A DNA stretch of 60,211 nucleotides, counting the filler, from Dugesia japonica (lineage: Eukaryota), in NCBI GenBank assembly GCA_001938525.1. It is 5 parts of 5 records of this genome, joined end to end, with 100 filler letters (N's around TTAATTAATTAA, not from the genome) between each part and the next. Parts side by side here need not be neighbours in the genome. Positions count along the whole stretch, not along the records: positions 27,040 to 39,975 come from MQRL01209270.1; 4 more parts are not named here. One strand, written 5' to 3'. The position numbers were made by a program, and so were the translations under genes. Below the pieces are notes generated by a model. The model had not been told where the DNA came from. It did not search any database and saw nothing but the letters and a program-made list of their open reading frames with translations. Of the stretch, positions 8,167 through 44,665 are shown piece after piece. The stretch's first letter is position 1; each line of letters begins with the position of its first letter.

Positions 8167-8899
8167 AATGTTCAGGTAATGAGTTTATCTGAATTTATTA
8201 GAAATTATTTTATTATTTAGCAATCAAACGAAGAATTTGAACAAAATGCATGTACTCCTACTAGCTTTTATTGAACAGACTTTTATTGAACTAACATTAT
8301 TAACTGTTTGTTATTGTACAAAATAGATTTTCTGTAATGTGATTAGTGTCTTGATTTATTATTATATTTTTAATATTGTGAGTGATTCATGTTAGTGTTA
8401 ATATTACCGTAGAGCAACTAATATTAATAGAACTGGGGAAAATTTAATGTCGTGAGCATTAAATGGTTTGTTCAGGGAGCATCTAATGTCGGTTACAGCA
8501 AAGAGTGCGTAGTTTGTACTCTGTAACAACTAATTTTTCTAACTAACATCTAATAGTATGAACACTGAAACATTCATTGGTATGAAACCTAAGCAACTAA
8601 TGTAAATATTGCTCGGGAAACATTGAATATTAATGTTAATATTACCCGTGCGGAATATTTTATGTTAATATTGTCGGGGAGAAAATCACATTCAAAAAAC
8701 TTTGCATAATTTAAACAAACATAAGCTTTATCAATAACTTTTCCTTAAAGAAACTCAAAAATTATTAATTTGGTTAAATTTAAACAAATAATCATTAATT
8801 TCGTTTAATTTCCACAAAATAGTAATAATTTCACTTAATTTAAACAAAAAAATAAGGAATTAACATAATTAGCATAACAACACTTATAATAAGTTTTAT

Positions 8900-13018: not shown

Positions 13019-13030
13019 TTAATTAATTAA
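13019..13030. other. Artificial contig linker TTAATTAATTAA within Ns (also at 26984-26995, 40020-40031 and 49041-49052)
   Basis: The same palindromic 12-mer, with stops in all six frames, is centred in N runs four times. Confidence 0.95.
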
Positions 13031-13074
13031 NNNNNNNNNNNNNNNNNNNNNNNNNNNNNNNNNNNNNNNNNNNN

Positions 13075-16000: not shown

Positions 16001-19000
16001 TTCGTGAATATATAACCTTAGAGTTGTAATAATAGATCTTCATATATTATCTTAAAGTAATAATACTACCTCATGCATATATAACCTTGGAGTAGTAATA
16101 CTTGATCATGCATATATTACCTTGGTTTAGTAATACTAGATCATGCATATAAAACCATTTAGAAGTAATAATAGATCATGCATATATTACCTTAGATTAG
16201 TAATACTACCTCATGCATATATAGTCTTGGATTAGTAATTCTACCTCATTCTTATTTTACCTTGGAGTAGTAATACTGGATTATCCAAATAAAACCTTGA
16301 GTAGTAATACTACCTCATGCATATATTACAATGCACTAGTGATACAAGATCTTGCAAAATTATCTTGGACTAGTAATACTTTCTTATGAATATATTACCT
16401 TGGATAATTAATTATACCTAATGCATAAATTATCTTGGAGTAGTGATACTAGATCATGAATATATTACTTTGAAGAAGTAATACTACCTCTGGCATATAT
16501 TACCTTGGAGAAGTATTACTAGAAAATACATATATTACCTTGGAGAAGTAATACTAGATCATGCATATATTACCTAAGATTAGTAATACTACCCCATTCA
16601 TATATTACCTTAGAGTAGAAATACTAGATTTTGCATATATAACTTTAGAGTAGTAATACTATTTCATTCATATAATACATTGGAGTAGTAAAACTACTTC
16701 ATGAATATATAACCTTAGAGTTGTAATATTAGATCTTCATATATTATCTAAAAGTAATCCTACTACCTCATGCGTATATAACCTTGGAGTAGTGATACAT
16801 GATCATGCATATATTACCTTGGTGTAGTTATACTAGATCATGCATATAAAACCTTGTAGAAGTAATACTAGATCATGTATATATTACCTTGGAGAAGTAA
16901 TACTACATGCATGTATTACCATGGAGTAGTAATACTAGATCATGCATATATTACCTAGGATTAGTAATACTACCTAATGCATATATTACCCTAGAGAAGT
17001 AATACTACGTCATGCATATATTACCTTGGAGAAGTAATACTTCATGCATATAATACCTTGGAGTAGTAATACTAGATCATGCATAGATTACCTTGGAGTA
17101 GTAATACTTGATCATGCATATATTACTTTAGATTAGTAATATTATCTGATTCATATATTACCTAAGAGTAGTATTACTAGATCATGCATACATTACCTTA
17201 AAGTATTAATACTAGATCATGCATATATTACCTTGGAGTAGTAATACTACCTGATGCATATATTACCTTGTAGAAGTAATACTACATCATGCATGTATTA
17301 TTTTGGAGTAGAGATACTAGATCTTGCATATATTACCTCGGAGTAGTAATACTACTTTATGCACATATTAGCTTGGACTAGTGATACTAGATCAAGCATA
17401 TATTACCTTGGAGTAGTAAAACTACTTTATGCACATATAACCTTGGAGTGGTAATACTAGATCTTTAAATATTATCTTGGAATATTAATACTACCTCATG
17501 CAAATATTTCCTTGGAGAAGTAATACTGGATTATCGGAATAAAACGTAAATATATTACCTTACAATAGTGATACTAGATCTTCATATATTATCTGAAAGA
17601 AGTAATACTACTACATGCATATATTACTTTGGTGTAGTAATACTAGATCATGCATATAAAACCTTGTAGTAGTAATACTAAATCATGCATATATTACCTT
17701 TGATTAGTTAAACTACCTCAAGCATATAATATCTTGGATTAGTAATACTACCTCATGCTTATTTTCCTTAGAGTAGTAATACTAGATCATCTAAATAAAA
17801 ACTTGAGTAGTAATACTACCTCATGCATATATTACCTTAGAGTAGTAATATAACCTCATGCATATTTAGCTTAGATTAGTAATACTAGATCTTCATATAT
17901 TATTTTGGAATAGTATTATATAATGCCTATATTAGCTTTAAGTAGTAATACCAGATCATGCATATAATTCTTTGGAGTAGCAATACTAGATCATTTATAC
18001 ATTACCTTAGAGTATTAATACTAGATCATGCATATATTACCTTGGAGTAGTTATACTACTTTATGCATATATTACCTGAGACTAGTGATACTAGATCTTC
18101 ATATATTATCTTGGAGTATTAATACTACCTGATGCATATATTACCTTGTAGAAGTAATACTACTACATGCATGTATTATTTTGGAGTAGAGATACTGGAT
18201 CTTCATATATTATCTTGGAGTAGTAATACTACTCCATGCATATATTGCCTTGGAGACGTTTAACTACCTCATGCATATTATACATTGGAGTAGTAATACT
18301 AAATCATGAATATATTACCTTGGAGTAGTATTACTAGATAATACATATATTACTTTGGAGAAGTAATACTACATGCATATAATACCTTGGAGTAGTAATA
18401 CTAGATCATGCATATATTTCTTTAGAGTAGTTATACTATATCATGCATATATTACTTTGGATTAGTAATCCTACCTCATGCATATATTACCTTAGAGTAG
18501 TATTACTAGATAATACATATATTACTTTGAAGAAGTAATACTACATGCATATATTACCTTGGAGTAGTAATAATAGATCATCCATATATTATTTTGGAGT
18601 AGTATTACTAGATCATGAATATATAACCTTGGTCTAGTAGTACTACCTCATGCATATATTACCTTGGAGTAGTAATACTACCTCATGCATATATTACCTT
18701 GGAGTAGTATTACTAGATAATACATATTATTACTTGGAGAAGTAATACTACATGCATATATTACTTTGGAGTAGTAATACTAGAACATGCATATATTACA
18801 TTGGACTAGTAATACTACATCATGCATATATTACCTTGTAGTAGAATATTATATAATGCCTATATTATCTTTGAGTAGTAATACCAGATCATGCATATAA
18901 TTCATTGGAGTAGTAATACTAGATCATGCATAAATTTTCTTGGAGTAGTATTACTAGATCATGCATATATTACCTTGGAGTAGTAATACTAGATCATGCA

Positions 19001-20526
19001 CATATTACGTTGGAGTAGTAATACTAGATCTTCAAATATTATCTTGGAGTAGTAATACTATTTCAAGCATACATTACCTTGGAGTAGTAATACTAGATCA
19101 TGCATATATTATTTTGTAGTAGTAGTAATACCTCATGCTTATATTACATTAAAGTAATAATATTAGATCTTCATATATTACTTTGGAGAAGTAAAACTAC
19201 CTCATGCATATTTTAACTTTGAGTAGTAATAATAGATCATGCATATATTATTTTGGAGTAGTAATACTTCTTCATGCATATAATACCTTGGATTAGTAAT
19301 ACTACTACATGCATATATTACCTTAGAGTAGTAATACTAGATCATGCATATATTACTTTGGAGTATAAAAACTACTTCGTGCATATAATACCTTTGAGTA
19401 GTAATTCTACTTCATGCATATATTACCTTGGAGTAGTAATGCTACCTCATGCATATTTTTCTTTGTAGTATTAATACTAGATAATGCATAAATTACCTTG
19501 GAGTAGTAATACTACATCATGCATATATTACCTTGTAGTAGAATATTATATAATGCCTATATTATCTTTGAGTAGTAATACTAGATCATGCGTATAATAA
19601 TTTGGAGTAGTAATACTAGATCATGTATATATTACCTTGGATTAGTAATACTACCTCATGCATATATTACCTCGGAGTAGTAATACTAGATCTTTATATA
19701 TTACCTTGGAGTAGTAATACTAGATCAAGCATATATTACCTTGGAGTAGTATTACTACATCATGCATATATTACCTTGTAGTAGTTATATTATATCATGC
19801 ATATATTATCTTGGAGAAGTAATACTACTTTATGCATATATTACCTTGTAGTAGTAATACTAGATCATGCAAATATTACCTTGGATTAGTAATTTTACCT
19901 CATGCATATATTACTTTAGAGTAGTAATAATAGATCATGCATATATTACTTTGGGGTAGTAATACTACCTCATGCATATATTACCTTGGAGTAGTAATAC
20001 TACTTCATGCATACATTACCCTGGAGTAGTAATACTTGATCTTCATATATTATCTTGGAGTAGTAATTCTACCTCATGCATATTTTATCTTTGAGTAGTA
20101 ATACTAGATCATGCATATTTTACCTTGGAGTAGTAATACTAGATCATGCATATATTACCTTGGAGTAGTAATACTAGATCTTACATATAATAACTTGGAA
20201 TAATAATACTAGATCATACATATATTACCTTGGAGTAGTCATACTAGATCATGTATATATTTCCCGGAAGTAGTAAATCTAGATCATACATATATTACCT
20301 TCGAGTAGTAATTCTACATGCATATATTACCTTGGAGTATTAATACTAGATCATGCATATATTATTTTGGAGTAGTAATACTAGATCATGCATATATTAC
20401 CCTGGACTAGTTAAACTAGATCATACATATATTACCTTGGAGTAGTAATACTAGATAATGCATATATTACCTTGGAGTAGTAATTCTAGATCATGCATTT
20501 ATTACCTTGGAGTAGTAATACTACTT
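13075..20526. repeat. Satellite array, 35-bp monomer, about 210 copies
   Basis: Consensus CATGCATATATTACCTTGGAGTAGTAATACTA(GAT/CCT). Period is 35 (atactagatc at 20101 and 20136), with 32-bp deletion variants. Confidence 0.98.
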
Positions 20527-22540: not shown

Positions 22541-24579
22541 TAACAATTTATCTGAATATTGGGTATTTAAAAAATGAAGCCCATAAAACCAATGAGCAAG
22601 CAGAGAACCAAGGAGCAAGCAAAGAAATTGAAGGATAATAAGATTATTAAAATATATTCAAATAGCTATATTATTTAAAATAAAAAGCATATTGTGAGTA
22701 AGATATATTATGATAATCAAATATTGATTTGACTCGTATGTATTTTGAGATTGATGCGACCTGTATGAACATTGTTAATTATATAATATATTTCCCGAAT
22801 CATTGCATCACTTATATTCCCCATGTTTAAGAATGCAATAAGTGTGTAATTGCTACTTTTATTATAATAAAATTTTATTAATTTGGATTTAGTTCTCGAT
22901 ACTAATACATTTCATACTAGGTCTCACTCAGTCTTATTGTCTTCTTTCATTATTAAAGATTAGTGATTTGGGGTCTATGAAAATATGAAGTAAAAATATG
23001 CATTAGAACTAAATAGAAAATAGACAAAATATGGATAAATACGGATAAATATGGCTAAATATATCTAAATTTGGGTAAATCAGGAAAATAGTACAATGTC
23101 AGGAAAATTTGTGTGTATTTAATGTCATTATTAGGTTTGTATTATATGACTATATTTAGTGTGTATTACTTTATAGGAATTACTGCATTTATTTAAGTGA
23201 CTTTATTGTTTGTATTATGTGTATTATATAGGTCTATTGGGTTTATAGTGCAAATAAGACCTATTAGTTTTCTATGTATAAGTGTTTATAGCATGTATAA
23301 GACCTATGGTACTTAGTGTGTATAATACTCATTTGTTTCATGTGTGCATAAGACTCTATTGTGTATATTACATGTATTATTTGACTTTATATGGGGATTG
23401 TGTTTGTATTATATAATTTAATGGGGTTTAATGTGTGTATAATATTACTCTATTAGATTTATTGTGTGTATTTATTGACTTTTTATGATTTATTATATGT
23501 ATTATATGGTTGTATTAGGTATCTTATGTGTTTTATATGGCTATGTTGGGTTATACTCTCTATCAATAGGTCTTAATAAACACAATTATCACTATCATGA
23601 AGTCTTACCTTATAGAATAATCGTTACCAACAAGAATTAACTTGAAGAATACTAGCTATCACCATTTACCTATTGATTATTCAGTTTATGGTTTAATCTG
23701 TTCATCGCTTATTCAATATAATCAACTCTATAATTCACACTGAATAAATACTTTACAACTAATAACCGGTTATTTATTTACATATTTTCACCAAAATATA
23801 GAAAATTTGAGATTTTTTCACTATAAAATCCCATTTACTTTATAGAATATTAACTTTAGGGATTGTAGGTTAACATATTTAGAATAAGGGAAAAGTTTTC
23901 TATTTAATAGATGCTTTCTTAACTTATTTGAGAAGGAAAATTCTTTCGAAAAATTTTTATTTATGAGAAATGAGCACCGTAAAATTGTCAGCAGTTCGGT
24001 ATAAAAATCTTTGATACCTGAGATATTAAACATATTTTTTCAAAAGTTTTGGACTGTTCACCCTGATTCTCAAAAATTTCATTAAAAAAATTTAAATTTT
24101 CATATTAGTTAAACAACATGAACGGTTTGCCCGGATTTCTATTAAATATTCCCATAAAAATTTTTAAAAAACTTTAAACAAATTCAACTTTTCACATGAA
24201 TTTCCTTAAAATTCAACCCAAACTGACCAGCCCGAGAAAATTATCATTCAAATTCTCCGAAAACTTACCCTTGTGAGTAAATAATTGACCAAATCAAAAA
24301 CTGACCAAAACAGACTAATGTGAGAAAATGTCGACCCATATTATTTAAACCAGGTAAATAATTGACTAAATTAGTAGTTGGAAAATGACGTTTTCCCGCC
24401 AAGGTACTGCCTACCTTCTTCACTTGCATGTTTAATGCCTAAATGAAATATCAATATAAAATTAAAAATTGTGAATTAAATTGCAGCAACAAAAAGGGAA
24501 AATGTTATTTCCCCACTACTTAGGTTGGTGTCTTAGTTTTTTAGTTTTAGAAAATATAATAAAATTTTTAAATAATGAA

Positions 24580-24869
24580 ATGAAATAATACACTTGTAAT
24601 GATTTTAAAAAAAATTTGATGGTAAAATTAATTTATATAAACATTTAGATTCAAGTGAATGTAGATTTAAAATTGATTATGAATGGCATTGTGTTTATTC
24701 TAATAAAAACTTTAGGATTAGTAAAAATAAATTTAAAGAACATAAAATATTGTGTCTTATAAATAAATTAAAACCACCTGGTGTTGTTTATACAAAAAAG
24801 GAAATTGAAGAAATTCATAAATCCAATGTTAAAAATTTTATATGTAAGAATAATCATCAAGATTTTTAA
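24580..24869 (+). pseudogene. Small zinc-finger-like (C2H2/C2HC) protein remnant
   Basis: Manual translation: YTC...DGKINLYKHLDSSEC...WHCVYSNKNFRISKNKFKEHKILC. Confidence 0.4.
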
Positions 24870-25797
24870 AAATAAATTTTTATTTATAGACACTTACATG
24901 TTTAATACCTAGATAAAATATCAATATAAAATTTTGAATTGTGAAAATAAAATTCAATACCAAAAGGGAAAATGTCATTTCTCATCTACTTGGACTGGCT
25001 TCTTAATTTTTAGTTTTAGAAAATATAATAAAATTTTATTTCTTAGAAAAACGAAAAAGTTTATTGAAGGTATAAAACAAGATCCAAATTTTTGAAAGAT
25101 TTAAAACAAAATTATATTAAAGTTATAAATTTAACACTAAAAGAACAAAGTTCAATTTTAAAAGATATATATCCCAAATCTGAATTATTTGAAGAAGCTT
25201 TACTTTAGGCTGGAAATACAATTTATAATTTATCAACCGAAAATAAAAAATTGAAAGAGGAATTAGAAATATCGAAAGGAGAACTAGAAAAATTAGAAAA
25301 AATATAATATTAAAATAAACATGGTTAATAATAAAAGTACAAACATAAACAAAACACTTAAAGCTACAACTGTAAGTAAAAATAAAAATACTAACACAAA
25401 TGGAAATCTCAGAGGGCCCCATAAAAACATGATAACAAATAGAATACAAAAACCAGTAAAATAACAAAGATGCCATTAATAGTTCTTAATAAAGAACATT
25501 ATGAATCATTAGTAAGTAAAATTATTGATAAATATAATATTAAAGCAGAAAAATTAAACAAAACTAATGAAGCAACTGAAATTGTATTTTATGATATAGA
25601 AGTACACGCACTTATGAACAATGGTTAAAAATCAGGAACGAGATAAAAATTATTTTAATGTTACTTATAATAAATAAGTGGAATGTTATAATTATTATAA
25701 AGCTAATAAATTTGATATAATATTTGATTTAACTTTTTGGGCCTGATTTTTTAATGATGAAAAAGATTTATAAATTTATTATTTTTTTATTAGAAAA

Positions 25798-26375
25798 ATG
25801 GAGCTACGCAGCATAATCAATACAAAACTTGATCTTGATAATACTATTAATTTTCAACATTTATTTTTGAAAAATGATGTTTTGAGAATTTCACCTTCAT
25901 CCGGTTCAATTAATAACTTAATGTCTTCTGGTGATATAACTTTTCAATCTTTACAATCTTCAAATCCATTAAACATTTCTAATTCAATGTTATATTTTAA
26001 AGTAGAAATTAATGTTAAAGATGGAGATAAAATAACTTTGGAAAATAATTGGTTTCCAAATTTATTTAAATCTATGAGATCATCAGATGTCGAAATAATT
26101 AATGATCCTGGAATAGCATCAACAATATTAAATTTTGTAACAACTAGATTAACTTATAAAAATATTTATTTTGAACTATTAAGTTGGTTAACAGATACTA
26201 ATAAATGCGATTTAGATGTAGACGGTTTTGATACAAATCTAGGTTTTTATAAAAAAAATAAACTTTATAACACAAAAAAGAAATTTGAAGGATACTTTCT
26301 ATAAAAAAATTTATTTGGATTTTTATAATGTTATAATAAATTATTATATAATCCAATAATTGAATTTTATTTAAG
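25798..26375 (+). pseudogene. N-terminal half of a Polinton/adintovirus major capsid protein
   Basis: GDITF, SMLYFKVEI, TLENNWFPNLF, VEIINDPGIASTIL, NLGFYKK, then after the stop KNLFGFL*CYNKLLYN. Followed directly by mariner sequence. Confidence 0.8.
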
Positions 26376-26939
26376 TAAAATAGTCACCATCAGATTCTAC
26401 ACCTTTTTGCCATCTAGAAACTAGTTTCAAAATACTATTAGCGAAATTTTTTTTCTCTGGAGTCTATGAATTCGGATATGGCCATTTTGACATCCTTCCG
26501 ATCAGCAATAATTTTTTAACCAAAAATTTATCAAAATGCTTAAAAAAATGATACTCTGTCGGAGATAAGTTGGGCAAATATGGTGGATGTGGCAAAGTTT
26601 TGCGACTCCTTCTTTTCCACATGTGGTCGGGCATTATCATGCAAGAGAATGATTCCTTTCTTATTGACCAATAAAGGCTGTTTAATGCATAATCTTTTGT
26701 GGATTAATTCAATTTTAGTACAGTATTTGTCTGAGTTAATAGTTTGACCTTCTTCTTACAAAGAAAAATGTATGACTCCAGCTATAGACTACCAAACTGT
26801 CAGAATTGTCTTTTTTGAGTGTAAATCCGGTTTAGGACAGTGTAAAAGAGGTTGATCGGCATCTAAGCATTGTGCAGAACGTCTACGATTGTGATGAATA
26901 ACCCATTTTTCATGATAAGTGACAATGCAATCTAAAAAA
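26376..26939 (-). mobile_element. Mariner (Tc1/mariner) transposase fragment
   Basis: Manual translation gives IVTYHEKWVIHHN, KPDLHSKKTILTVWWSIAGVIH, TINSDKYC, ILLHDNARPHV, PPYLPNLSPTEYHFF and LVSRWQK...ESDGDYF. Confidence 0.93.
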
Positions 26940-27039
26940 NNNNNNNNNNNNNNNNNNNNNNNNNNNNNNNNNNNNNNNNNNNNTTAATTAATTAANNNNN
27001 NNNNNNNNNNNNNNNNNNNNNNNNNNNNNNNNNNNNNNN

Positions 27040-28990
27040 AAAGCAAGGAGAGTTAAGGCGAATACTAAACATAAAGAGAAAATCAAGCAAATATAAGTGA
27101 TTGAACCGAACAACGAGGAATCATCATGGAATGAAATGAGAAAAGCGTATCAAAATCAACAAGATAGTAGAAAAGATCAAGATGTGAAATTTAAATCAGA
27201 CTTTTACTTAAAAAATAACAACTATAATATCAAGTCCTGGAAGATAATATAACAATTACAACAGAAATTCTAGTTCAAGTAGAAATTGCGAATGGAATGC
27301 AAGTCCAGCAAGAGGGTATAATCGAGATAATAGAAGATTTAGTCCAAAAGGATATGATAATAGAAGAAGTCCAAGCCCATATTTTTCAAACGAAGGTAAG
27401 GATAAATTGAATAANAAAGTGCAGATAAAGTATTACAATTGTAATAAATATGGACATATGACAAGAGTATACAGAAGCAAACCAAATGATTCCAGAGATA
27501 TTCTGAAAAAAAATGTATCATTCAATCCAGTAACAAGAGAAACTAGTGCTATTGAAATAGTAGACAATGAAGCTTATGAGAATATGAAAATTGAATTAGA
27601 AGATGTGAAAATACATTATCAGCGAATGATGGAACGACAACAAGAAAGAGGTGAATATGAAATAAATGTGTGTGTGAACCAATAGAAGTGGATTTAGATG
27701 TAATCAATGAAAGAAAACAAGAGATATTAATTGAAAATGTTAGATAAGAAATAACAAAACAAAGAACTAACGAACTTAGATTGCTGCAATATTTAAAAAA
27801 TTTTAATGAATATCCCATCAATTTACAAAAAATCAAATCATTTAATAATCACGTTAGCAAAACATCGAAATAAAATAGAAATATCAGAAAATCTTGATGC
27901 GATAGATGAAATTCTCCAAAAATATAGTGATAATGTACAGAAAAATGAAAATTTGCAAGAAAATCTAAATATCCAAATAACGGCAGGGCAAGAAAATTGT
28001 TCTCTGACAGCATTAGAATTAAAAATGCATGCGTGTACAAAACCAAATAAACTATAAAAACAGTGAAAAAAAGACTGGCCAGTAGAATTGCAAAATGAAG
28101 GCGTGATACAATTATCGATTTATAATACAGAATTAAATGAGAATAAAGCATTAATTGAATATTGAGTTATTCCAGGTAATGTCAACATCATAAAAGCGAC
28201 AATAATGAAAATGTACCACAAGCATTAACAAATGATGAGCAACAGTCTATGGAAGAAATTTTGAGTATAATGGCGCAAGCAGATAAAGTTGATGAGGAAA
28301 GAGCGAGCAAACAAAAAAAGGAGACAAAACAGCTACCAACATCAAGCACAAGAGATGAAAGACCATCAACATCAGATAATGTAAAAAGTGAAATACTGAG
28401 ACAGAAAATATTTAAAGATAAGACATCAGATTACAAAAGATCAAGAGGCAGACCAAAATCAGAGGATGTTATACCAGAAAAAGTGCAAGTTGAACATTTA
28501 AATAATATATCACAGAGATATGATAAACAAGCATCAGCAGGATAGGATCAAGGACTTATAAGGATTCTAATCAAATTTGTGCATGCTGATCTATATGACT
28601 GTATAATAACTCAAAATAGAGCAATAATGATATTTGAAGACATGAAACTCATAATAAAAGAAGTGAACAAATTGACAATAACAGATCCCAAAATTGATGA
28701 TTATAAAGTATTGAAAACAATGATGAAAGAGGGAATAAACAAAAATAAAGTAGTTACAGCTATTTTGTATTTAATACTCAAAAATTGGGAACAATTGGTT
28801 GAGAGGCCTGCTAAAAATATTATGGTTTGTAGAACGATTAATTAATCAGTTCTTGAATAAAGGAATCAACGCGTGGATCACGCAAGAAGGAGGTTGGAAA
28901 ACGTCTTATCTAACAAGTAATCGAAAACCAAAAATTCAAAAAACAAAGCAAGAAAATGAAATAAAAAACTCATTAAGAAAGAAACAAAGA
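27040..28990 (+). pseudogene. gag: Gag-like region with a degenerate CCHC zinc knuckle and long coiled-coil/unknown extension
   Basis: KYYNCNKYGHMTRVYRS fits C-X2-C-X4-H-X4-C with two Cys-to-Tyr changes. Confidence 0.6.
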
Positions 28991-29009
28991 AATAAAATAA
29001 AATAAAAAT

Positions 29010-30800
29010 ATCGAATCCAATAATAATCCACTTGTATCAGGAATCTGATTTTATACACGCGGATGCATATGAATGTAGTGTAAAGTTCGAAGAAAAAGTA
29101 TCATATTGTGCCAATACACAAATAGTATCACTGATACCAGCTTGTTCTCCGGACATAGTAGTAATATATGCAAGTGATTTTGAGAAAGCATTTAAAACGA
29201 AAACCTTAAAAGTACATGGTAATGAGTTACAAGTAAAGGTTGGTGCAAAAGTAAAGCAAAAAGTAGATATTGTGGGATGGTCCACGGTAAGCGGATACTG
29301 TTAAGGAGGAAATTATAAAATATGGGGACAGGTAAAAGCCGATATCCTAATCAGAAGACAATATCATGCTCAATTAAGGAAAATAAAAGCAAAATTCGAC
29401 GCCGCTACGGAAAAAATGATGAAATATCGATTTTGTAGATTAAAAAATGCAGGTTGTGATACCAGAGAGTCCATGATTACATACAAAGTAAACCCATTTG
29501 AATGAACACTTACAAAATTAAGAACAGTAGAAGTTAGTGGAACTCAACCAACGAATAAGTCACCTAACATCCGAGATAAAAAGATGAAAACAACAGTAAT
29601 AAATGAAAAAGCAACACAAACAGTGAATTTATCAAATTCAACACAAGAAGCGTTAATACTTATTGAAAAAAGAGCAGACGCCAAGTGTGGTGTGACAGTA
29701 AAAGTAACCAATTACAACGGTTTATATTTGTCAACAACGGAAATTAGAGATGCCAGACCAGAAGTAGACAAATTGGATATGAGAATAGCTACTTATTTCA
29801 ACAAAAAAATTGATTATCTATATCATGAAATATTGAGACAAGTAGATAGAATATATCAGGTAACTATCATGAGAAATTGTAAAACCGACTGAGAATTATT
29901 GAGAACAAAAATGGCAATGGTAGTCACAAATCCTGATTTGGTTGCACCACTTTTGTTTGAGGAAAGAGAAACATTTTGGAAAATAGTGGGAGAAACTTTA
30001 GTGAGTTTAAAATGCAAACCAGTAGCAGTTACGCTTATAGATCATGAGAAATGTACTAATGAATTATTAGTAATTTATAAAGGAAAAAAAGGATTCTTGC
30101 TTCCAATAACAAGAATTCTAACAGGTGATTGAAAAATGCAATAACATTCTTGATCCGTATGCATAAATTAACTGAAGAGGTATGGATAACAGTATCGGAT
30201 AGGAAAACAGCACCAACTCCACTAATGAGGGAACTGATAGGGCTCAGTAGAACAACCGAAATGGAATGGATTGATAATATGGAAAAGCGTGGTATTTATA
30301 CAATTAGCGATATTGAGAAAGCAAGAAAACATGCTTTTTCCAATACAAAGAGAAAAAATAATATCAGTAATGGTGGAAAAATTAGTGGAAAGAATTGAAA
30401 ATATGGAAAATTGTGGTATCTATACAATTAATGATATTGAAAAAGCAAGAAAGCATATACTTTTTCCAATACAAAGAAAAAAATTAATATCAGTAATGGT
30501 GTAAAAATTAGTGAAAGGGAGTAATGGAGACGATGTAAATTTTGAATCACTGTTACACGCAGATCATTTTAAAAGGGCAATGCTTAATTTCGTAGATAGA
30601 TTTTTGGGGGAAATGCAATGGTTTGGCAATATATTCTCATGTATTTTATTTGGATGGTATGTATTAACGTTCGTAAAATTAGCGGGTCATCAAATTCTTT
30701 CTTTAAAACAATTATATGCAGTTTTTGGTTACACATGGAAACTAGGAGCATGTTTATATCCATTCATCGCAAAACATATAATTATGCAAAACAATAGTGA
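29010..30800 (+). pseudogene. env: Chuvirus-type (class III, gB-like) envelope glycoprotein, disrupted
   Basis: Motifs in order: LYQE..ECSV..SYC, VGW...GYC*GG.Y, FCRLKNAGCDT, KCG...TNY.GLY, YFNKKIDYL, NC, VGE..SLKCKPVAV...KCTNELLVIY...FLLPITRIL, GIYT..DIEKARKHILFP, then hydrophobic WFGNIFSCILFGWYVLTFV and LYAVFGYTWKLGACLYPF. Confidence 0.82.
30270..30519 (+). repeat. Tandem duplication of about 124 bp inside the glycoprotein
   Basis: IDNMEKRGIYTISDIEKARKH.FPIQREKIISVMVEKLV is repeated as IENMENCGIYTINDIEKARKHILFPIQRKKLISVMV*KLV. Confidence 0.9.
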
Positions 30801-30999
30801 AAAAATAAAAAATCTAGAGAAACATAGAGGCATATATACAGTAAACATAGATGATAAACAAGAATTAACTAAATTAACTAATGACAAATATTGCAAATCA
30901 TTAGACATTGAATATAAGCCATATAAACATGAAAATATCGAACTAAAAGATATAAAGATTAGTGATCAATTGCAATACAAGTATCAAAAAAATTATTCA

Positions 31000-31350
31000 A
31001 TTTCAGTTATAGATTCAGACAATTATCTATTAAAAATAGATATCATAATAAATGAAATCAGTATACCTTCACTAATAGATACAGGAGCAGTATGCTCAAT
31101 AATAAAAGAGTCGTGGTTAAGTAACTCTCTCAAGCAAAAAATAAAAAATTATAAACCAGAGGGTATAAAATCCTTTACAGGTCATTTAATAAAAATAAAA
31201 GGCAAAATTGAATGTACAGTCGCAGTTGGACAAGAAATTAGTACACGTTCTTTTAGAGTTATGGAGAAAGGAACACAGAATTGTATTTTGGGAATGAATT
31301 TTCTTACAAGATTTATGGGTTATGGTATTGATTTACAAAATAATACACTA
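31000..31350 (+). pseudogene. Retropepsin aspartic protease domain
   Basis: SLIDTGAVCSII and CILGMNFL, within ORF 30511-31428. Confidence 0.92.
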
Positions 31351-31939
31351 ACGATGGTGACGCTGTTACCATTACAAATTGAGTATAATGAGGTATTCGT
31401 AACAGAATTAATAACAGTAGAGCGTTGAAGGGAATGTATAATACCAATAAACACAGAATTACAAAGCAAAAATTCATATATTTTTGAACCAAATGATAAA
31501 TTAATGGAAAAACAAAATTTATCAATAATGCCTGAATGTGTAGAACCAAGAAAGGGTACAATACCAATAAGAATAGCAAACTACGACAATTATGGTGTGA
31601 CACTCCAAAAAGATACAAAATTAAGAAAATTATTTGAAAATGGTAATGAATATGAAATATATGAAATTGTAGTTGAGGAACAGGCAAAGAAAATAAATTT
31701 AAAGAGAAAAAATAAACAATTTTTATCTNATTATCCAAAGAGCATAAAATCAGAAAAAAAGGCATGTCAGTTAAATTGTCACGAACTATTCGAACTTATA
31801 GTGGATCAACAGGAAAAAACTGAAAAACTAACTGACACAGAATTAATAAAACCAAAACAAACTATTACGAGAAAACAAAGATTACGAATACAGATCTTAC
31901 GATGAGTTAAAAGCAACAAATACAGAAATTATTAGATAA

Positions 31940-33130
31940 ATATTAAGATGCATTTGCTAAGCATGAATTTGATATGGGAGGAACAAATATTATAAAACAT
32001 ATAATTGATACAGGCGACGCAGAGCCACTAAAGCAACGACCATATGTAGCACATATGTGTTGAGGCCAGAGATAAAAAGACAAGTAGCGAAACAAAATGC
32101 AAATGGAATCATACGGGATAGTTTTTTTTAATGGGCATCACCATTAGTACCAGTTAAAAAGAAAGACAAAGAAATTCGAATGTGTAAAGATTATAGAAAA
32201 CTCAATGAAGTCACGAAAAATGATACTCATCCATTCCCAAAGATACACGAGCAATTTAATAAATTAATGAATGCGCAACATTTTGCAAGTTTAGGTGCCA
32301 ATAAATGTTATAATGTAATTCCAGTGCAGGAAGAAGTTCGAGAGAAAACAGCATTTTGTACCGATGATGGGCTATATGAATTTTTCAGATTATCATTTCG
32401 ATTATGCAATGCACCAGCTACATTTTAAGGATTGATGAACACAGTATTAACATGTGTGGAACATGTAGTTATATATATAGATTATATACTGATAGCATCC
32501 AAATCGTTCGAACAACATTTGGTTAACATAGAAAATGTCTTGTCTAGAATCAGAAAAGCAAATATCAAATTAAAACCAACAAAATGTAAATAAGCAAAGG
32601 AAAGTGTTTTATTCCTCGGACATATTGCATCATTAAAAGGATTAGAACCAAATCCAGAAAAAGTGAAAGCAGTTCAAGATTTCCCAGTGCCAAAAAGCGT
32701 ACAACAGTAACAAGGATTTAATGGCGTAGTGAGATATTACTAGAGGCTTATAGAAAACTTTTGCAAAGATAGCAGCACCATTGGTAGAATTAACAAAAGG
32801 CATGAAAACCAAAGGTGAAAGTAAAAACATTATGATTGTAGAGCTTTTAGATGAAAAATCAAAAAAACCTCAAAAGAAGTGGGGTCCAAAGCAACAAGAA
32901 GCCTTCGATACACTAAAACAACGACTGTTAACAGCTTTAATACTAAGATACCCAGATTTTACCAAACAATTTATAGTGATGACACATGCAAGCGGATATT
33001 CCATGGGAGCATTACTGGGACAAGAATACGAGAAAAATAAATACTGTGTCATCGCATATACGATGAGAATGTTGAAAGGAGCACAGAAGAGATAGTCAAC
33101 GATTGAGAAAGAATGCTTAGATATTATATG
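31940..33130 (+). pseudogene. pol: Gypsy reverse transcriptase and RNase H, disrupted
   Basis: IKHIIDTGDAEPLKQRPY, WASPLVPVKKKD, RMCKDYRKLN, KTAF, LCNAPATF, VIYIDYILI (degenerate YxDD), FLGHI, FAKIAAPL, YPDFTKQFIVMTHASGYSMGALLGQ and STIEKECL. Confidence 0.95.
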
Positions 33131-33732
33131 CCTAAAAAGAAAACTAGTGTTAACCTAGTAGATGAAACAGTTGTCAGAGAAATCTGACCTAGATCATTAG
33201 AAGCTATAATCGATGAAATTGATCAAGGTGGTGTATTAAATGAACCGGCGATGTCAGATACATGCTGTAAAATCTTACAAGTAAACAGAAAATTAAAGCC
33301 TGAAATGAAAATTGAAAACGTTGGACCATGGGAACCCAAGGAAGTTAATGCTGTTGTTAAAATAAATCTCTGAAAAATTATTAAAAAGATTATTTGATGA
33401 AAATACCAGGAACATAATTCATAGCTGCTCAAGCCTTGGCAGTGTCAGCAATAATTATTCAAAATTCATTGTTGAGTGAAACNNNNNNNNNNNNNNNCTT
33501 AAATTAAAATTAGCAAAGCTATCAATGATAATTTATAATGTATTTGAACAATTGACAATGAATTCAACTAAATGTAATGATCAGCAGCAAAGTAGTGAAG
33601 AACCAAGATATGAAATCAATATTGAAAAAAGTGAAATACCATGTTCCGAAGCAACAAACAGAACACTTTAGCCTGCAGAGAGAGTAATAGAGAATCCTAT
33701 TCAAATAATACTAATGATATTGATTATATATA

Positions 33733-34105
33733 TTGATTATATATATGATATTGATTATATTGATTATAATGATATTGATTATATTGTGGAGAACAAATGG
33801 GTTAATTACATATAATTGTCATTATTCTAGCTTTACGGGAATCTACTCACTGGTGGATGCAGTGAGATTAAGTGAAGCATATCCTACAAAATTACAAGTC
33901 CATCGACCAACAAAGTAATATATTTACCAAGAAACAGAGTATTATTGAACTAAAGTTAGAGAATATTGAGTACAGAAAGCAGTGTTTGAATATTATTGTA
34001 GAGTTCATGGTTATACTAATGTTTTATAAGCCAAACTCATACTAATGTGCCACCTGAAGACAGTCAGGACACATTTAGAACAGGAAAGTTAAAGTTCGAG
34101 ATCAA
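33733..34105 (+). pseudogene. N-terminal fragment of a second chuvirus-type glycoprotein
   Basis: Hydrophobic signal-like stretch, then GLITYNC...YSLVD, YIYQETEY...EYYCRVHG and PPEDSQDTFRTGKLKF. Confidence 0.6.
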
Positions 34106-34199
34106 ATAAAGCTATAGTAGAAGATAGTCTTCTGAATAAAATAGACAGAATCTGTAATTAAAATAGAAAATTATCTCACTGGAACAAATGGCGGAAAAT

Positions 34200-34450
34200 T
34201 ATATATTATTAAATATTCATAATGTGATATGAAAATGTGCGATGAAGATATAAAACATGATGTCAAAATCATCCAAAGATACCCAGTCAAATGTATTTTG
34301 TATTTGCTAGTATTTGCTAGTAGACGAAATACAGGAGTAAAAACAAGAGTACCATTGAAACCAATGCCAGTTTCTATATTACCAATAGAAATTCTCGCGA
34401 TGGATGTGTTGGGGTCATTCAAATCAACAAATTATTTATCTCACGAGTGT
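34200..34450 (+). pseudogene. Gypsy integrase N-terminal fragment
   Basis: VPLKPMPVSILPIEILAMDVLG follows a degenerate zinc-binding region. Confidence 0.7.
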
Positions 34451-35444
34451 ATTAGAACCAGATCCAGATTGGGATAATGACATGATTATATAAACGAAGA
34501 AATCAAAAATACTCTAGAGTGAAAACCCAGAAAATACTTCGGACAGAGTTACTTTTTGTGAAGGTCATAGTGAATGAGTTGCTAATGACATAAATACGTA
34601 TAAGAAAGACTACACAATATTCAAACGGGGAAACAAAATTACACAATATGGTGGCAAAAATGTAAAGAAGACATTCCTATTTTTCAAATTAAAATCCAAA
34701 CCACACCACATCCAAACGACAGATCAGGTTTAAAGTGGACTTTTGTCTCAAGTATTTGTGGATCGTTAGATGAGAGTTGCTTACGTTTATTCTTATTGTT
34801 ATGAAGCCAATCAATGCTCAGATCTAGTTGTTAATGTCTCCAAAAGACTAATGGAAAATATTTTCAAAAAAGCAAGTGACAAAGACCCAAACACTTGGCA
34901 AAAGCTTGATTCCAAATTCAAGTTACCAGTAAGATATTATTGTGGACAAGAAGTTGAGCAGTTTGCTCTATTAAAATTTGACATAGATAAAAACCGATTA
35001 TATGTTAGTAAACAGTCCTATATCTTGTACTCAATGGTTTATATCCTCGAGCACATCGGAAAATCACTGTTCACGATTCAAAGATTTATCAATGACAAAA
35101 AAATTGGTCAACAAACTGGTCAGCTAGGTTGAGGTTCCTAAAAAGAAGAAAAACTTTCAGCTTGCAGAAGTGCAGAGTAGAACAAATCCAAAAAGAGAAA
35201 AAGTTCCAGCAATTTCGTGCCTATGATCTTTTTTTCTCAATATCTCGAACCTTAGTATATAGTGGATATGACTTTTTTTAGCAATCCAAAATTTAAATAT
35301 TCTATCTAATACAACTGACTTTATATTTTATTTGTATTGATACTTAATTGATATTTAATACAGTACAAATTATGTATTGGACAATTTGTTATTCTTATTG
35401 TTTTAGTTTTACTTTTAAAAATGTTGATTTTGATAAAATTTTCA

Positions 35445-35493
35445 GGACGAAAATATTTTTTCGGGGGAACATATGTGATGAACCATCACATAT
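35445..35493 (+). mobile_element. Polypurine tract and start of a 3' LTR
   Basis: aggacgaaaatattttttcGGGGGAAcata followed by TGTGATG at 35474, a typical Gypsy PPT-TG junction. Confidence 0.6.
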
Positions 35494-36332
35494 AAAGTTT
35501 TAAATTAAGAATAATTTTTACTAAATTTTAGTTTTTGTTTTAGTTAATAAAGGGTAAGCAATATTTAGAATATAATTACAAAAAATTAGTAATAATAATG
35601 AATTGTTAAAATAATGTTTTCTTTAAAAATTCCTAAAAATTTTTAACATTTAATAAAAAATGATATGTAAAATAAACAAAAAATTATTTAGAAAGAAATT
35701 ATGAATGGAGTTACGTTGGCTCAGAAACTTCCCTATAGATGCTTTTGAAATTTGTTCAAATAAATTATTTTAGTGTTTTTCACGTAATTTTTAAATTTTG
35801 TCAGTACATTTTTAAATTTAGCCAAATTTGTAATATTTAAATATCATTTTTAACTAAAATTTACCGAAAAGCTTACTCNAAAAATTTAAAATATTTTTCC
35901 TTTTTTAATTAAAAGTATGAAAAGTAATTTCCAAACACATTTAATTTAAGTATGGCTTAAACAAAAACAATTTTTAAAATTGAAAGTCCAAAATTGATTT
36001 TCTAATTTTTAAAATGACATGTCAAAAATTAAAAGACAAATAAAAAAAGATAACATTTAGTACTCTTAATATTCATTTGTTAATTCATTTAATTATTGGA
36101 AAAAATTTATTAAACTTTAAATGTGTGTGTTATGATATTTTATGTTTCGCTGGGTTTAGTTTTCTATATACTTTCAATTGTTTTCAAACTTGTCAAACTG
36201 AAAAAGTACCCAGAAAATTAGAAATTATTTTATCATAGGAATTCAATAAAATTTTAAGAAATAATCACTCTTTTAGTTATTTTTATTTACAAATTATTAA
36301 TTTTTATTAGTATTTATATTGAATCTAGCATA

Positions 36333-37160
36333 ATGCAAAATGAAAGTTTAAATGAAAAATCCTTTCATTTTTCAGATAAGTTGTTTAAATAATCATATAT
36401 TATAAATCAAATTTTAAAGTAATATAATGAGTGAATCTTTTATAAAATATGCTAAGGCAATCGGTGTAAATATTGAAGATAATGACATTCATCTAATCAA
36501 TATAGCTTATAAAGGTTTTACAGAGGAATTAGGTGTGAAGTATGTTTACGAAGTAATTTATTTTAGATCATAATTTTTATTTTTTTAAATATAGATAATT
36601 AATAAAAAAATTGCATATAAAAATACTGATAGTGGTGATATTTATGCTATTCATCCAAATTATAAGTTATATCGTAATATTGTTAATGATTATAAATTAA
36701 AGCGTGTTTCTTTTGAAAATATTCTAAAACATAACTTGATACATCAATTTGATAACAACATTGATGAACTTGAAAAAGATTTAAAGAAGTTAGATTTTGA
36801 ATATCAAACTGAAGTTGATTTAATGGGAAAACATGTTAAGAAAGCTTGTAGCCATTTGAGTGACAGTAAAATATTATTACTTGCTGAACTTACACAAAAA
36901 TATGATAACATTGAAAAGTGTAAGGAGGAGTCTAAAGTATTTGATTTAATAATAATATTTGGTTAAATTAATTTTAGACATTATATAAAATTTGTCAAAT
37001 TGAATTAGAAAAAATTTGCGAACAAATGATCTCTATTGAGGGGCACAATCTAGAGAAAGAAACAGAACCATTATTAAATCTTGATTATTCTACTGATAAA
37101 TCACTTCTCTATATTAAATCAAATTTTGATGAGAATTCGGAGGAAGATTTTGTGTTGTAA
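36333..37160 (+). CDS. Predicted 4-exon host gene, 234 aa; divergent CEP164-like N-terminal region followed by coiled coil
   Basis: Exons 36333-36379, 36420-36552, 36595-36936 and 36978-37160, with GT-AG introns of 40, 42 and 41 nt. The spliced frame is open from ATG to TAA (705 nt). Confidence 0.72.
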
Positions 37161-37468
37161 TTGAAATTATTACGAAATTTCGTACTAAATTTTTCAAAAT
37201 TAAAAGCTGCACAAAAATGATTGGTTATTTTAATGTTGCTAGATTGCGAAAATGTAAATGTAATCGATTCTGCTGCATAGTATGTTTTAATGTAGATTTA
37301 TAATAAATCCTATCAATTAGTTTTAATATATTCTCTTGATTATTTATTTATTGATTACCTTTAATTATTTATTTTTATTAAAATATTATATTATTTCATA
37401 ACTTCTAATGTTTATCTATGAATTTAATATACATTGGAAAAAATTCACTATTTTAATAAGTCAACTAC

Positions 37469-37660
37469 TCACAGAAAACAAAAGGTGATGAAAATGTAAC
37501 ATTTGTTATTATTTATTAAAGTTTTAATCACATTATTACGAGCTCCCGTATCCAAAAGACCTTCCATTACAACTCCAATTATTATTGTTATATTTGATCT
37601 GTCCTGCATTTTATCGAAACTTATTTCTACATGTTGACCTCCTGACAATACTCCCACCCA
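37469..37660 (-). pseudogene. Isolated retropepsin fragment
   Basis: IIGVVMEGLLDTGARNNVI. Confidence 0.65.
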
Positions 37661-37734
37661 CTCTTCAACATTATCCGCACGAAACTTCTCTTTTTTCAGA
37701 AAACTATATATTTTCTCAGATAAGAAAATATTGT

Positions 37735-38296
37735 TATGATTGTATAGGGTTAATGAGTATATTATTTGTATAGTTACCTTGTATTATTTACATAACAACC
37801 ATGTATTATAAGGATTATGAGTGTATTATTACATAGTAACCCTGTATTATAGCGTTTATGAGTATATTATTTGCAGTTAACATATATTATTTACATCCAA
37901 CCGTGTATTATATGGTTTACGAGTCTATTATTTACATATTAACCGTGTAATATTAGGTTTTTAATTGTATTATTTGCTTTGTTACTATGCAATATTTACA
38001 TAACAACCGTTTGATATATGGTTTTGTGTGTCTTGGTTACATAGTAACCATGTTTTATCGGGTTTATGAGAATTTTATTTACATATTAACCGTGTAATAC
38101 AAGGTTTATGAGTGTATTATTTGAATAGCAACCTTGTATTATTTATATAGCAACCATGAATTATAAGGTTTATGAAATATAAGACTTATGAGGGAATTAC
38201 TTACATAGCAAACGTGTAATATAAGGCTTGTAAAGGTATTTTTACATAGTTACCATGTAATATAAGGTTTATGAGTGCAATATTTGTATATTTACA
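37735..38296. repeat. Minisatellite with units of about 42 bp interspersed with subunits of about 22 bp
   Basis: tatttacatagtaaccatgtattataaggtttatgagtgtat is repeated degenerately. Confidence 0.85.
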
Positions 38297-38347
38297 TTGT
38301 ATTATTTACTTAAAATTATAGCTAATCAAAAGATTACTGAACAGGCA

Positions 38348-39219
38348 ATGCAAGAACGCATAGAAAAAGATGATAATACTACTAAAATTATTGAACCTCA
38401 AGACGACCAAATAAATTATGCATCTGAATTACATCATGAATATAGAAAAACAAGAAGATTTTTAAAAGTACAAATACATGATAAAGATCATACATGGGGA
38501 TGCGATATTGCGGATATGGTTAAAAAATCTATTGATCGAGATAAATATAGATATATTCTAGTTTGCATTGATTTATATACAAGATATGCTTTTGCATTCC
38601 AATGATAAATAAAATTCAAGAATCTTTAAGAGAAGCTTATGAAAATATATTTGAAGAAATAATAGAATACCAGATTACATCTGGTTTGATAAAGAATCAG
38701 CAATAAAATCAAAATACTTTGATAAATTTCTTAATGAAAATAATATTAAATTATATCACAGAGAATGAAGGTAAATCAGTTTTTGCTGAAAGATTAATAA
38801 AAACTTTGAAAAATAAAATGTTTAAATATTTTACATCAATTGGGAAACAGGAATGGAATAAAGCATTATTAGATAAAATAGTTAATGAATATAATAATTC
38901 AATTCATAGTAGTATTAAGTTATCACCAAAAGAAGCATCAGAAAATCCTGAGAAAATAAAAGATATAATTAGTCAGCATAATCATGCGAATGATAATATA
39001 ATAAATAAACATAGATTTCAAATAGGTGATAGAGTAAGAATATTCAAATATAAAAATAAATTTGAAAAAGGATATTCAACAAAATTTACTAATGAAATTT
39101 TTATAATAACTAAAGTTTATCATACTAAACCAATTACATATGGAAAAACTGATTTAAATAATGAAGATATATTAGGAAGATTTTATGATAACGAATTATT
39201 AAAAACTAATTTTAGGTGA
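38348..39219 (+). pseudogene. Second Polinton/adintovirus rve integrase, without chromodomain, frameshifted
   Basis: ASELHH, TWGCDIADM, YRYILVCIDLYTRYAF, WFDKESAI, KSVFAERLIKTLK, YNNSIHSSIK, FQIGDRVRI, FEKGY and GRFYDNEL. Confidence 0.92.
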
Positions 39220-39609
39220 ATTATTAAAAACTAATTTTTAAACGCAGTAACTAAAATAAATCTTCAATAATCTCTTCTTTTTCTCTGTCTAAATAGATAT
39301 AATTATATTTATCTTTCCAATGGTTTCTAATAAAATTATCAAAGGATAATTTATCTGGTTCTAATACTAATTAAACAACAATAATGATCATGAAAACGAA
39401 ATTAAATTTAATTAACCTTTGTCGATCATAGTTCAACTTATTTATTTCTTTATTTTTATCTTTAATCAAATACTCTAATTTCCCAAGAGTAAAATAAATA
39501 TTTTTTATATCCAATTCATCTATTAATATTTTCATGCGTATNNNNNNNNNNNNNNNNNNNNNNNNNNNNNNNNNNNNNNNNNNNNNNNNNNNNNNNNNNN
39601 NNNNNNNTC

Positions 39610-39975
39610 AATTCCGTCGATATTTGAATTTTTTACTCGTATGGATAAATTCCTTTTTCTTAATTAATTCAAATAAAGCGTCGGGAGAAACTAATTCAAG
39701 AATTGCAGATTCTATATTTAATCCCCCGCCGACATTATTAGATATTCCTGTATTTATAGGATTACCAATAATATCATTTATTGTATTGCCTAAAAATAAT
39801 CTTATTATGTCTGGAGTTAATCTAACTGATTCTTCTTTACAGAAACTATGTAATATTTTACTTTCTTCTTTTGTTAATGATTTTGATATTCACTCTATTG
39901 AGTTTTGTAATAATTGGTAACTATCTAAAAATCTTACTTTCCCATATGATAGACATATAATTCTCTTCTGTTTTA
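39610..39975 (-). pseudogene. polB: Fragment of a second protein-primed PolB
   Basis: Manual translation: KTEENYMS / YGKVRFLDSYQLLQNS ... LFELIK / KGIYPYE. Confidence 0.75.
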
Positions 39976-40288
39976 NNNNNNNNNNNNNNNNNNNNNNNNN
40001 NNNNNNNNNNNNNNNNNNNTTAATTAATTAANNNNNNNNNNNNNNNNNNNNNNNNNNNNNNNNNNNNNNNNNNNNATGGTGTTAATAAACCAATAGTAAG
40101 AATAGGGTTATATCAGAAACCAAGTATAAGTACCGTTACAATTTCCATGAAAAATCATCATAAAACAAATTCACTATTCATTTTGTAAATTATTAGTAAA
40201 TATTACAGTGTTTTATTAAAAATATTTTTTACAGATTTGGATTATTATAAAATAGAAAATTGATGAGATATGGATGTATCCAGTGATA

Positions 40289-42769: not shown

Positions 42770-44665
42770 AGCTTTAAAAACTTCCTACGTTTTTCACATT
42801 TCTATCTAATCGCTGTCCATTTTATCCTTGTACACCATACCATCTTTCATGAATTTTCTCAATTATTCGATAAGACCCTTCAAATCTCTCTTGCCTTTAT
42901 TTTTTGTTTCTATCTTGATGAGTAAAACATCGCCCACTTTGAATTCTCTTTTAGTATACACATCTGGAATGTTAGTAAGTTAGTTAGAATGAATTAATAA
43001 TCACATCTTTAGTTTTTATCTGAAACGTCTGACTCGTACCACTTTTCTCTGCTAATTTTCTTTCCAAAAACGACCTTTGCCGTGCTCTTTTCAGTCGTCT
43101 TCTGTTTTGTTGCGTTAAGTGTAAATTCTATTTAGGGTAAAAGATCTGCCCAATCTGTTGGCTCTCTTTCCTGAAGTGTTGCATTAATCAAATCTCGAAT
43201 TTTCCAGTACTGTCTCTCAATTTGTCCATTTGCATTATGATGATATGGCAATGCAAACTCTCTCATAACTGGATTCAAAAGCTTTTCCACAATCTAATCT
43301 TATCTTTCTTGGACATCCAAATCTCAGTATCCACTTTTCAAAAANAGCTTTTCGTATTGTTTCCTCATTGTCTTGTCTAGACAATGGTATAAAAACCAGA
43401 TATTTACTGTATTGGTCGATTATTCCAAGAATGTAATTTTTTCGTCCACTTGTTTCCCGCATTGGCCCACATATATCTTTGAATATAAACTCTTTATCTT
43501 CTCTTTAGTTGCTGTCGTCACTACTTTGATCTTCTGACAAATTTCACAACTACGAACTATCTTCTGTATTTGNCTCAACAAATTATTTGCAATATATTTG
43601 TTTCTTATATATTCGTACACCTTTTTAACTATTGCATGGCATTGTACACATACCTTACATCTTGGTCTAGATAACATATCTGCATTACCATGTTGAATTC
43701 CTTTTCTAAATTTTAAAACCTTATCTAAATTGCTCAGATAATTAATCCATGTTTGGAATTACGACGTAATTGGTTTCTTCGTCGTTATTATGAAGGTTAT
43801 AGCTTTTTGATCTGTTCTAAGAGTAAATCTTCTAACGTACAACTAATGTTTGAAATGCATACAGAAATAATACACAGCCAATAACTCTTTTTTTGTAATG
43901 CAGTATCCCTTTTCATGACTTGTCATTGAGTGTGGTCCATAGGCAACAACTCTTTCTTTTCCTTTCTCTGTGACAATTCTGCTCCAATTACATCGAAACT
44001 GGCATCTGTATCTAATATAAATTCTTTGTTTATGTCCGGAAAACACAATATTAGTGCAGTCATTATACCCTCGAAAGTATTGTTTATTTCATCTGTTCAT
44101 TCTAATTTCTTGTTGCTTGGTCCGCTACACAACTGCTCGAATATCTTTGATTTTCTTGCGTAGTTTTCTATAAATTTCCTGTAAAAATTACAAATTCCCA
44201 AGAAACTTTAAAATTTCTTCACACAGTTAGGTTTGCTAAATGTTCTTATAGTTTCTATTTTAGATGAATCAGTTCTAACACTATCTCTACTAATTATGTG
44301 TCCAAGAAACTTGATTTCACTTTGAAGGAACTCACACCTCTCTGGAATAATTCTTAGACCAGATTTCATTATTTCCATCAATACTTTTTCAATTACTTCA
44401 TAGTGTTGGTCTTTATTGTTCGTAAATATCAGTATGTCATCAAGATAAACCATGGCTCCATTGATTCTGCCCACCACTTTTGTCATCATCTCTTGAAATG
44501 TCCCTGGTGCCGCTGCGATGGCAAATGGAATTCTATTAAAACAATGTCCGTGTTTCGTTGAAAACGCCGTTTTTTCTTGAGATTCTTCTTCCAGGTCTAC
44601 TTGATAGTATGCATTTCCCAAATCTATTGAACCAAAATATTTTGTTCCATTCCACCGCTGCCCCC
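42770..44665 (-). pseudogene. pol: Gypsy pol remnant (RT-RH-IN)
   Basis: FGSIDLGNAYYQ, KTAF, APGTFQ, MVYLDDILIF, FLGHII, YCITKKELLAV, SCEICQ, GIIDQYSKY and RLDCGKAF. Confidence 0.93.

Follow-up and report, generated by a model that had tools for sequence, protein, structure and literature searches.

The 60,211 nt stretch of Dugesia japonica DNA analysed here (assembly GCA_001938525.1; hereafter the window) joins five parts of the genome, one of which (27040–39975, from MQRL01209270.1) carries a retroelement on the plus strand at 27041–33128. The element forms a single purine-skewed block that begins at the gap ending at 27039. We consider it very probable that the element is a dead Ty3/gypsy retrotransposon, one of many copies and partly deleted. 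It likely belongs to the Burro-like GAG-ENV-POL kind, and its intact form likely specified one polyprotein composed of a Gag knuckle, a Bcl-2-like domain, an internal signal, a class III envelope glycoprotein (Env), protease (PR), reverse transcriptase (RT), RNase H (RH) and integrase (IN). The features annotated in and directly behind the element are as follows.

27041–27685 (+): last part of Gag, including a degenerate zinc knuckle at 27431–27472 (sequence; weak matches to knuckles of relatives)
28435–28461 (+): short basic motif resembling what we take to be an AT-hook, also in relatives P0004, P0006 and P0017
28546–28912 (+): likely Bcl-2-like domain in two frames, BH1-like at ~28699–28782 and BH2-like at ~28844–28912 (tblastn, profile and fold of relatives)
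28913–29010 (+): A-rich junction without the internal signal sequence and the first ~40 Env residues (comparison with four relatives)
29011–30882 (+): class III fusion glycoprotein (Env) of the chuvirus/herpes-gB type, interrupted by stops, a shift of frame near 30130 and a duplication (PF24664, model, Foldseek)
30262–30516 (+): tandem duplication of 124 nt within env (copies 30262–30390 and 30386–30516, 87 % alike), skipped by one contig of run X3
30619–30690 (+): predicted transmembrane anchor of Env (Kyte–Doolittle 1.74)
30712–30768 (+): a further hydrophobic segment of lower score (Kyte–Doolittle 1.05), in the Env tail and likely a helix on the membrane surface
31024–31314 (+): retropepsin (Pfam gag-asp_proteas) with LIDTGA at 31072–31089, sharing its open frame with the Env anchor
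31390–31640 (+): domain between PR and RT, common to relatives and at the position of the Burro dUTPase-like domain (aligns to P0003, P0004 and P0012 at 19–29 %)
32048–32800 (+): Ty3/gypsy-type RT with stops and a degenerate active-site motif (Pfam RVT_1; PDB comparison)
32850–33128 (+): RNase H, truncated near 33128 (RT_RNaseH_2, E 1.5e-18)
33720–34047 (+): remnant of a second, different env, with a hydrophobic signal-like stretch and Env N-terminus (tblastn from 8 of 13 relatives; PF24664 model 5–94, E 4e-4)
34247–34432 (+): integrase-start fragment of this or another element (P0004 1952–2007, 51 % identical, E 2e-8)

A preliminary description, made from the sequence alone, had proposed the order zinc knuckle, glycoprotein, protease, RT and RNase H, and this order was confirmed, Pfam placing all of it but the knuckle, which is degenerate and weakly supported by relatives. 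The same description had called the glycoprotein a chuvirus-type class III fusogen, and structural comparison bore this out. The Pfam family PF24664 (Monjiviricetes_fusion) matched four successive pieces in model order (57–153, 241–340, 470–504 and 516–633), and 28996–30132, translated with X at its four stops, matched it at E 2e-30; the remaining two frames of this interval hold 52 and 31 stops. When the Env piece was modelled with a 92-row alignment (pLDDT 90.5), all but one of the Foldseek matches listed against the PDB were herpesvirus gB (best E 1e-9), the exception being GP64, and the best viral matches were glycoproteins of chu-, qin- and xinmo-type (E 2e-23 for a chu-like G; TM up to 0.81). 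A profile of the Env alignment likewise matched gB only, weakly (34 rows, best E 0.004). The window Env is therefore a class III fusogen of the chuvirus/gB type.

The longest stop-to-stop ORF of the window, 30505–31428 (GTG at 30511; 307 open codons), runs from the Env anchor region into LIDTGA, as had been claimed for 30511–31428, and holds both the C-terminal part of PF24664 (E 1e-7, model 516–633) and the retropepsin (gag-asp_proteas, E 2e-7). The 48-codon linker between Env and protease is free of stops, which was equalled in 0.6 % of 20,000 base shuffles. A full HMMER search returned 384 proteins at E 0.001, of which 150 were listed and 17 long ones were scanned for domains. In ten of these 17, Env is followed by protease in one unbroken ORF, which reaches RT in five and integrase in four; P0003 and P0016 are unbroken from a CCHC Gag knuckle to integrase, in agreement with the earlier proposal of a single Gag-Env-Pol polyprotein. 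A Gag knuckle or Gag domain lies upstream in six and the full PR-RT-RH-IN order is present in four. As such, the Env-protease fusion is not a one-off. The preliminary description had named env 3′ of integrase in other copies, with this junction unique, as a finding that would speak against it; env stood behind a gypsy integrase in none of the 17 long relatives scanned. P0055 has DUF5641 before env. P0003 carries the database label of a hypothetical protein from a Flavobacteriaceae metagenome-assembled genome, and is likely animal DNA in a bacterial bin.

A quick Env tree (labels by pattern) took in those 93 of the 152 collected proteins that cover the span; in it, the window Env fell into a 16-row clade (SH-aLRT 98) holding all nine protease-bearing rows and none of the 60 free-standing glycoproteins. 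Furthermore, contigs from three public runs (6170–8203 per run) lie on the element across 27041–33088, including the Env-protease linker, at a summed depth of ~900 to 50,000, compared with 7–20 for single long contigs and tens or hundreds beyond. Thousands of contigs point to a large family, a depth that is not to be read as a copy number. These data also bear on the idea that Env became fused to protease in this copy only, through misassembly or because a chuvirus glycoprotein fragment happened to insert there. The window is indeed a gap-rich patchwork of repeats, with a second env remnant downstream; nevertheless, the same junction in the ten relatives, the family-level depth over the linker in all three runs and the grouping of the window Env with polyprotein-borne rather than free viral Envs largely refute it, and we give it almost no credence. 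From one poly(A) run 200 reads were placed, none 99 % alike and three at 95–99 %; as none reached 99 %, other copies are the source of these reads, which therefore give no firm information on expression.

The window RT matched Ty3 RT at E 8e-46, the next group among its eight PDB matches reaching E 6e-14, and it is 39–48 % identical to five relatives. It is thus of Ty3/gypsy type, as the preliminary description had held. Chuvirus-type env is well known from BEL/Pao elements, being present in those of mosquitoes (PMC13524379, available in part), which raises the question of an Anakin-like BEL/Pao identity. No BEL RT was among the PDB matches, so the RT match is not a direct test of this. The relatives, however, carry RT_RNaseH, Integrase_H2C2 and gag-asp_proteas and no Pao-type domains, of which we take DUF5641 to be one; P0055, the sole row with DUF5641 before env, sits deep among free glycoproteins. 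Together with the strength of the Ty3 match, this makes a BEL/Pao identity very improbable. Protease, RT and RNase H stand in gypsy order, an integrase fragment follows downstream and most of the integrase is lost. Past 33088, within the RNase H, family depth drops from thousands to ~100.

One argument of the preliminary description stood in part. All eight of its ORF pieces do start in one frame (1 mod 3), which it took as the mark of a single decayed polyprotein. Homology to intact relatives, however, assigns the frames 2-1-2-1-0-1-0-2-0 along 27041–33128, about eight changes. Env departs from the listed frame near 30130 and regains it only via the 124 nt duplication, so that the 30271 piece begins out of the coding frame; the duplication is missing from a contig of run X3, whose joint is at 30256–30389. 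Given these changes, and a duplication that cancels an earlier shift, the shared frame is partly luck, and we rejected it as evidence on its own. The case for one polyprotein stands on the open Env-protease ORF and on the relatives. Intact ORFs are absent from the window copy, which has stops, about eight frame changes and deletions.

The position of env between gag and pol, in frame with the protease, is a genuine layout, but the novelty implied for it did not survive comparison with the literature. Arkhipova & Yushenova (2019; PMC6431247, available in part) described the planarian Burro elements (GYPSM1, Burro-1 to -4) as gypsy-like LTR (long terminal repeat) elements with, in one ORF, Gag knuckles, BCL2, an Env matching mononegavirus fusion glycoproteins, PR, a dUTPase-like domain, RT, RH and IN, and termed them the first case of in-frame env between gag and pol. 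Chary & Hayashi (2026; PMC13524379) described GAG-ENV-POL Ty3/gypsy elements with a gB-type, chuvirus-like env in flatworms, nematodes and bryozoans; nine flatworm elements are listed, three ORFs are described, and the main text, as available, mentions neither Burro nor Bcl-2. A metavirus with flipped env/pol order is among the non-canonical nematode endogenous retroviruses of Sacco et al. (2022), as cited there. The available parts of PMC8532177, PMC11410931, PMC10084718 and PMC12440569 do not treat the layout. Anakin (Dezordi et al., 2020; PMC7642597, available in part) comprises BEL/Pao elements with a chuvirus glycoprotein. It thus shares the fusogen family of the window Env in another retrotransposon superfamily. 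Its env is reportedly located behind pol.

The window element resembles Burro in having Env in frame with pol and, by homology to relatives, a BCL2-like domain just before Env. Unlike the window copy, Burro1 has a 4,873 aa ORF with MATH, BIR and ankyrin domains (PMC6431247), a comparison made by description only. Four pieces of 27248–28845 gave no MATH, BIR or ankyrin match in Pfam, the element being visible from 27041 only. With knuckle and Env just ~1.6 kb apart and none of these domains found, the window element looks like a compact Burro relative or a deleted copy. We read it as a decayed representative of a compact, Burro-like family, perhaps itself uncatalogued. With the errantiviruses of Chary & Hayashi it has in common the Ty3/gypsy pol and the gB-type env between gag and pol, but those elements are intact, whereas the window copy is decayed. 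Over the first 171 aligned positions of Env, a hand count against Smed_errantivirus_3 gave 86 identities, and the other five Smed elements looked less alike; as only about half is identical, the window family would be a sister of Smed_errantivirus_3 and not the same element. This similarity, along with the A+T content, points to a planarian host. As the layout is already in print and the window copy is dead, the locus carries little weight as a discovery; it does, however, tie together the elements of two papers, Burro and the Smed errantiviruses.

Upstream of Env, the evidence for Gag is weak in the window and clear in six relatives. The knuckle at 27431–27472, in which two of the four ligands are retained, matches the knuckles of relatives weakly (E 0.006–0.12), with no knuckle match there in the Pfam scan, and the 5′ part of the element is lost to the gap ending at 27039. 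The Bcl-2-like pieces were matched by P0008 and P0017 (tblastn, 2 kb target; E 2e-6 and 8e-6), and Bcl-2 is the sole Pfam match of 28835–28921 (E 0.058, below the cut-off). A profile of the domain from four relatives matched Bcl-xL (E 8e-4), and a model of the P0017 domain of moderate confidence (pLDDT 65) matched solely Bcl-2-family folds (best E 0.0017). The window's piece alone gave no usable match in atlas searches and unrelated chains only in the PDB search. P0017 has the order knuckle, ubiquitin-like, Bcl-2, Env, which is the Burro order, with accessory-domain scores below the cut-off. The single scores are weak and all concordant, and homology to relatives suggests that a Bcl-2-like domain likely lies directly before Env.

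Between the two anchor motifs that flank the following junction, the window copy has 49 codons compared with 90–120 in four relatives, so that the signal-like stretch plus 40–70 surrounding codons are missing. No hydrophobic stretch was found in any frame of 28913–29010, and one contig at single-copy depth covers 28916–29204, across the signal-less junction. Inspection by eye showed a hydrophobic signal-like stretch immediately before the Env start in 12 of the 13 relatives examined. The idea that the Bcl-2 tail is still present in the window copy was rejected.

The preliminary description had placed two membrane anchors before the protease, a puzzle that likely dissolves. Hydropathy was scored for 91 of 94 matches on the Kyte–Doolittle scale, with 1.6 as mark. 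All 14 polyprotein-type rows and 39 of 43 free-standing glycoproteins reached this mark in the first segment, compared with one of 14 and four of 43, respectively, in the second; the second segment is thus likely not transmembrane. The missing second crossing is likely the internal signal before Env, lost in the window copy. With an internal signal and one anchor, the protease would be left in the cytosol. If instead both segments cross the membrane, full-length read-through would leave the protease on the lumenal side, and Pol would have to be made in some other way, such as by splicing or a skipped signal. The second segment is conserved and scores 1.4–1.7 in five of 14 rows, and several split-read joints in DNA contigs omit parts of env, though these are DNA deletions; yet its median is 1.27 compared with 2.15 for the first, it contains one to five charged or proline residues, and free-standing viral glycoproteins have the same weak segment with a tail after it. 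We therefore consider the two-crossing arrangement improbable.

With a single crossing, Gag and the Bcl-2-like domain would be synthesized in the cytosol, after which the internal signal would direct the Env ectodomain into the lumen of the endoplasmic reticulum (ER). Signal peptidase would cut there and the upstream part would stay signal-anchored, much as flavivirus and hepatitis C virus (HCV) core remains anchored by an internal signal. The Bcl-2-like domain would in this way keep a C-terminal anchor, a feature that cellular Bcl-2 proteins have. One transmembrane helix would bring the chain back to the cytosol, with the second hydrophobic stretch on the membrane surface, and the protease would release both itself and the RT-RNase H and integrase parts. 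Gag, Env and Pol would arise in equal numbers, Pol being tethered to the Env tail until cleavage. An intact element would likely form enveloped particles by budding, and these would be able to fuse with neighbouring cells. The available literature on these elements reports no particle formation by any member.

It is possible, though we would not bet on it, that Burro and the compact GAG-ENV-POL gypsy elements form one lineage that goes back to a single, ancient capture of a chuvirus-type fusogen. Its polyprotein would be flavivirus-like, with an Env signal that also anchors the tail of the Bcl-2-like domain, making this an apoptosis regulator held at the ER, and with Pol packaged one to one via the Env tail. 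Literature searches, which did not take in Sacco 2022, Grohme 2018 or the figures of PMC13524379, did not find the proposed topology in print. What may tentatively be regarded as modestly novel is the topology proposed for the membrane, together with the anchoring of the Bcl-2-like domain and the additional ectodomain of relatives (below). A concrete membrane topology is thereby proposed for a retroelement polyprotein with its own envelope, and a membrane-anchored Bcl-2-like protein from a retroelement is suggested in an animal whose tissue turnover relies on cell death.

The identification as a Burro-like GAG-ENV-POL element draws directly on what was observed, namely the domain order, the fold, the open Env-protease frame and the unbroken relatives. 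Several results weigh against it. Searches for homologues and scans of metagenome, viral and genome contigs retrieved no intact copy of the window family, and the single ORF of that family is thus inferred from relatives at 21–36 % Env identity; word-indexed homologue searches gave none at E 0.001 (2850, 2269 and 692 candidates). The Env tree is quick, has rough regex labels and comes without a one-clade test. Pfam scores for the Bcl-2 and ubiquitin-like domains are under the cut-off, and the dUTPase-like assignment between protease and RT failed, 31390–31640 giving no PDB or Pfam match and a negative dUTPase-like test. A positive-inside check gave the topology no support (mean K+R 2.3 before the anchor and 1.7 after). 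Finally, the element shows neither an LTR nor a primer site, and its 5′ end is not visible: a gap precedes 27041, the 3′ end is lost, and 24001–40000 compared with the window yielded no flanking direct repeat. No tRNA was found.

Behind the element, the env remnant at 33720–34047 is likely from a sister family. It repeats the Env motif of 29035 with other sequence, and was rejected as the element's own displaced signal; by eye, its motif region is closer to Smed_errantivirus_4 than to _3. Its join to the main element is likely genomic, as contigs at single-copy depth span 32942–33729.

Three of the four integrase-reaching relatives (P0003 at 2253–2570, P0004 at 2484–2743 and P0015 from 2775) have an in-frame second signal-like stretch and ectodomain-like region after integrase, which in P0003 and P0004 is clearly followed by another anchor. 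The fourth, P0016, ends inside integrase, and a second ectodomain was not seen in the window. The regions of P0003 and P0004 gave no Pfam match and a best PDB match of E 0.066. This ectodomain is a candidate attachment protein, and a fibronectin-III reading, from a short motif, is only a guess. Moreover, P0004, P0006, P0007, P0008, P0013 and P0014 have two to four protease-like repeats after Env in one ORF.

Elsewhere in the window, a second decayed gypsy-type element lies at 43060–44726 on the minus strand, with RT, RNase H and integrase pieces (34–40 % identical to the RT of the relatives) and no env seen. Integrase-, DNA-polymerase- and capsid-like ORF pieces at 1022–1528 (−), 5235–7959 (+), 25774–26304 (+), 38261–39219 (+) and 39608–39889 (−) look like Polinton remnants; their only matches were to rve, at 1025–1528 and weakly at 38261–38602. 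The gaps at 12975, 26940, 39976 and 48997 (44 N, a 12-base palindromic spacer and 44 N) are padding, not biology, and a long satellite with a 35 nt unit occupies ~13030–20200.

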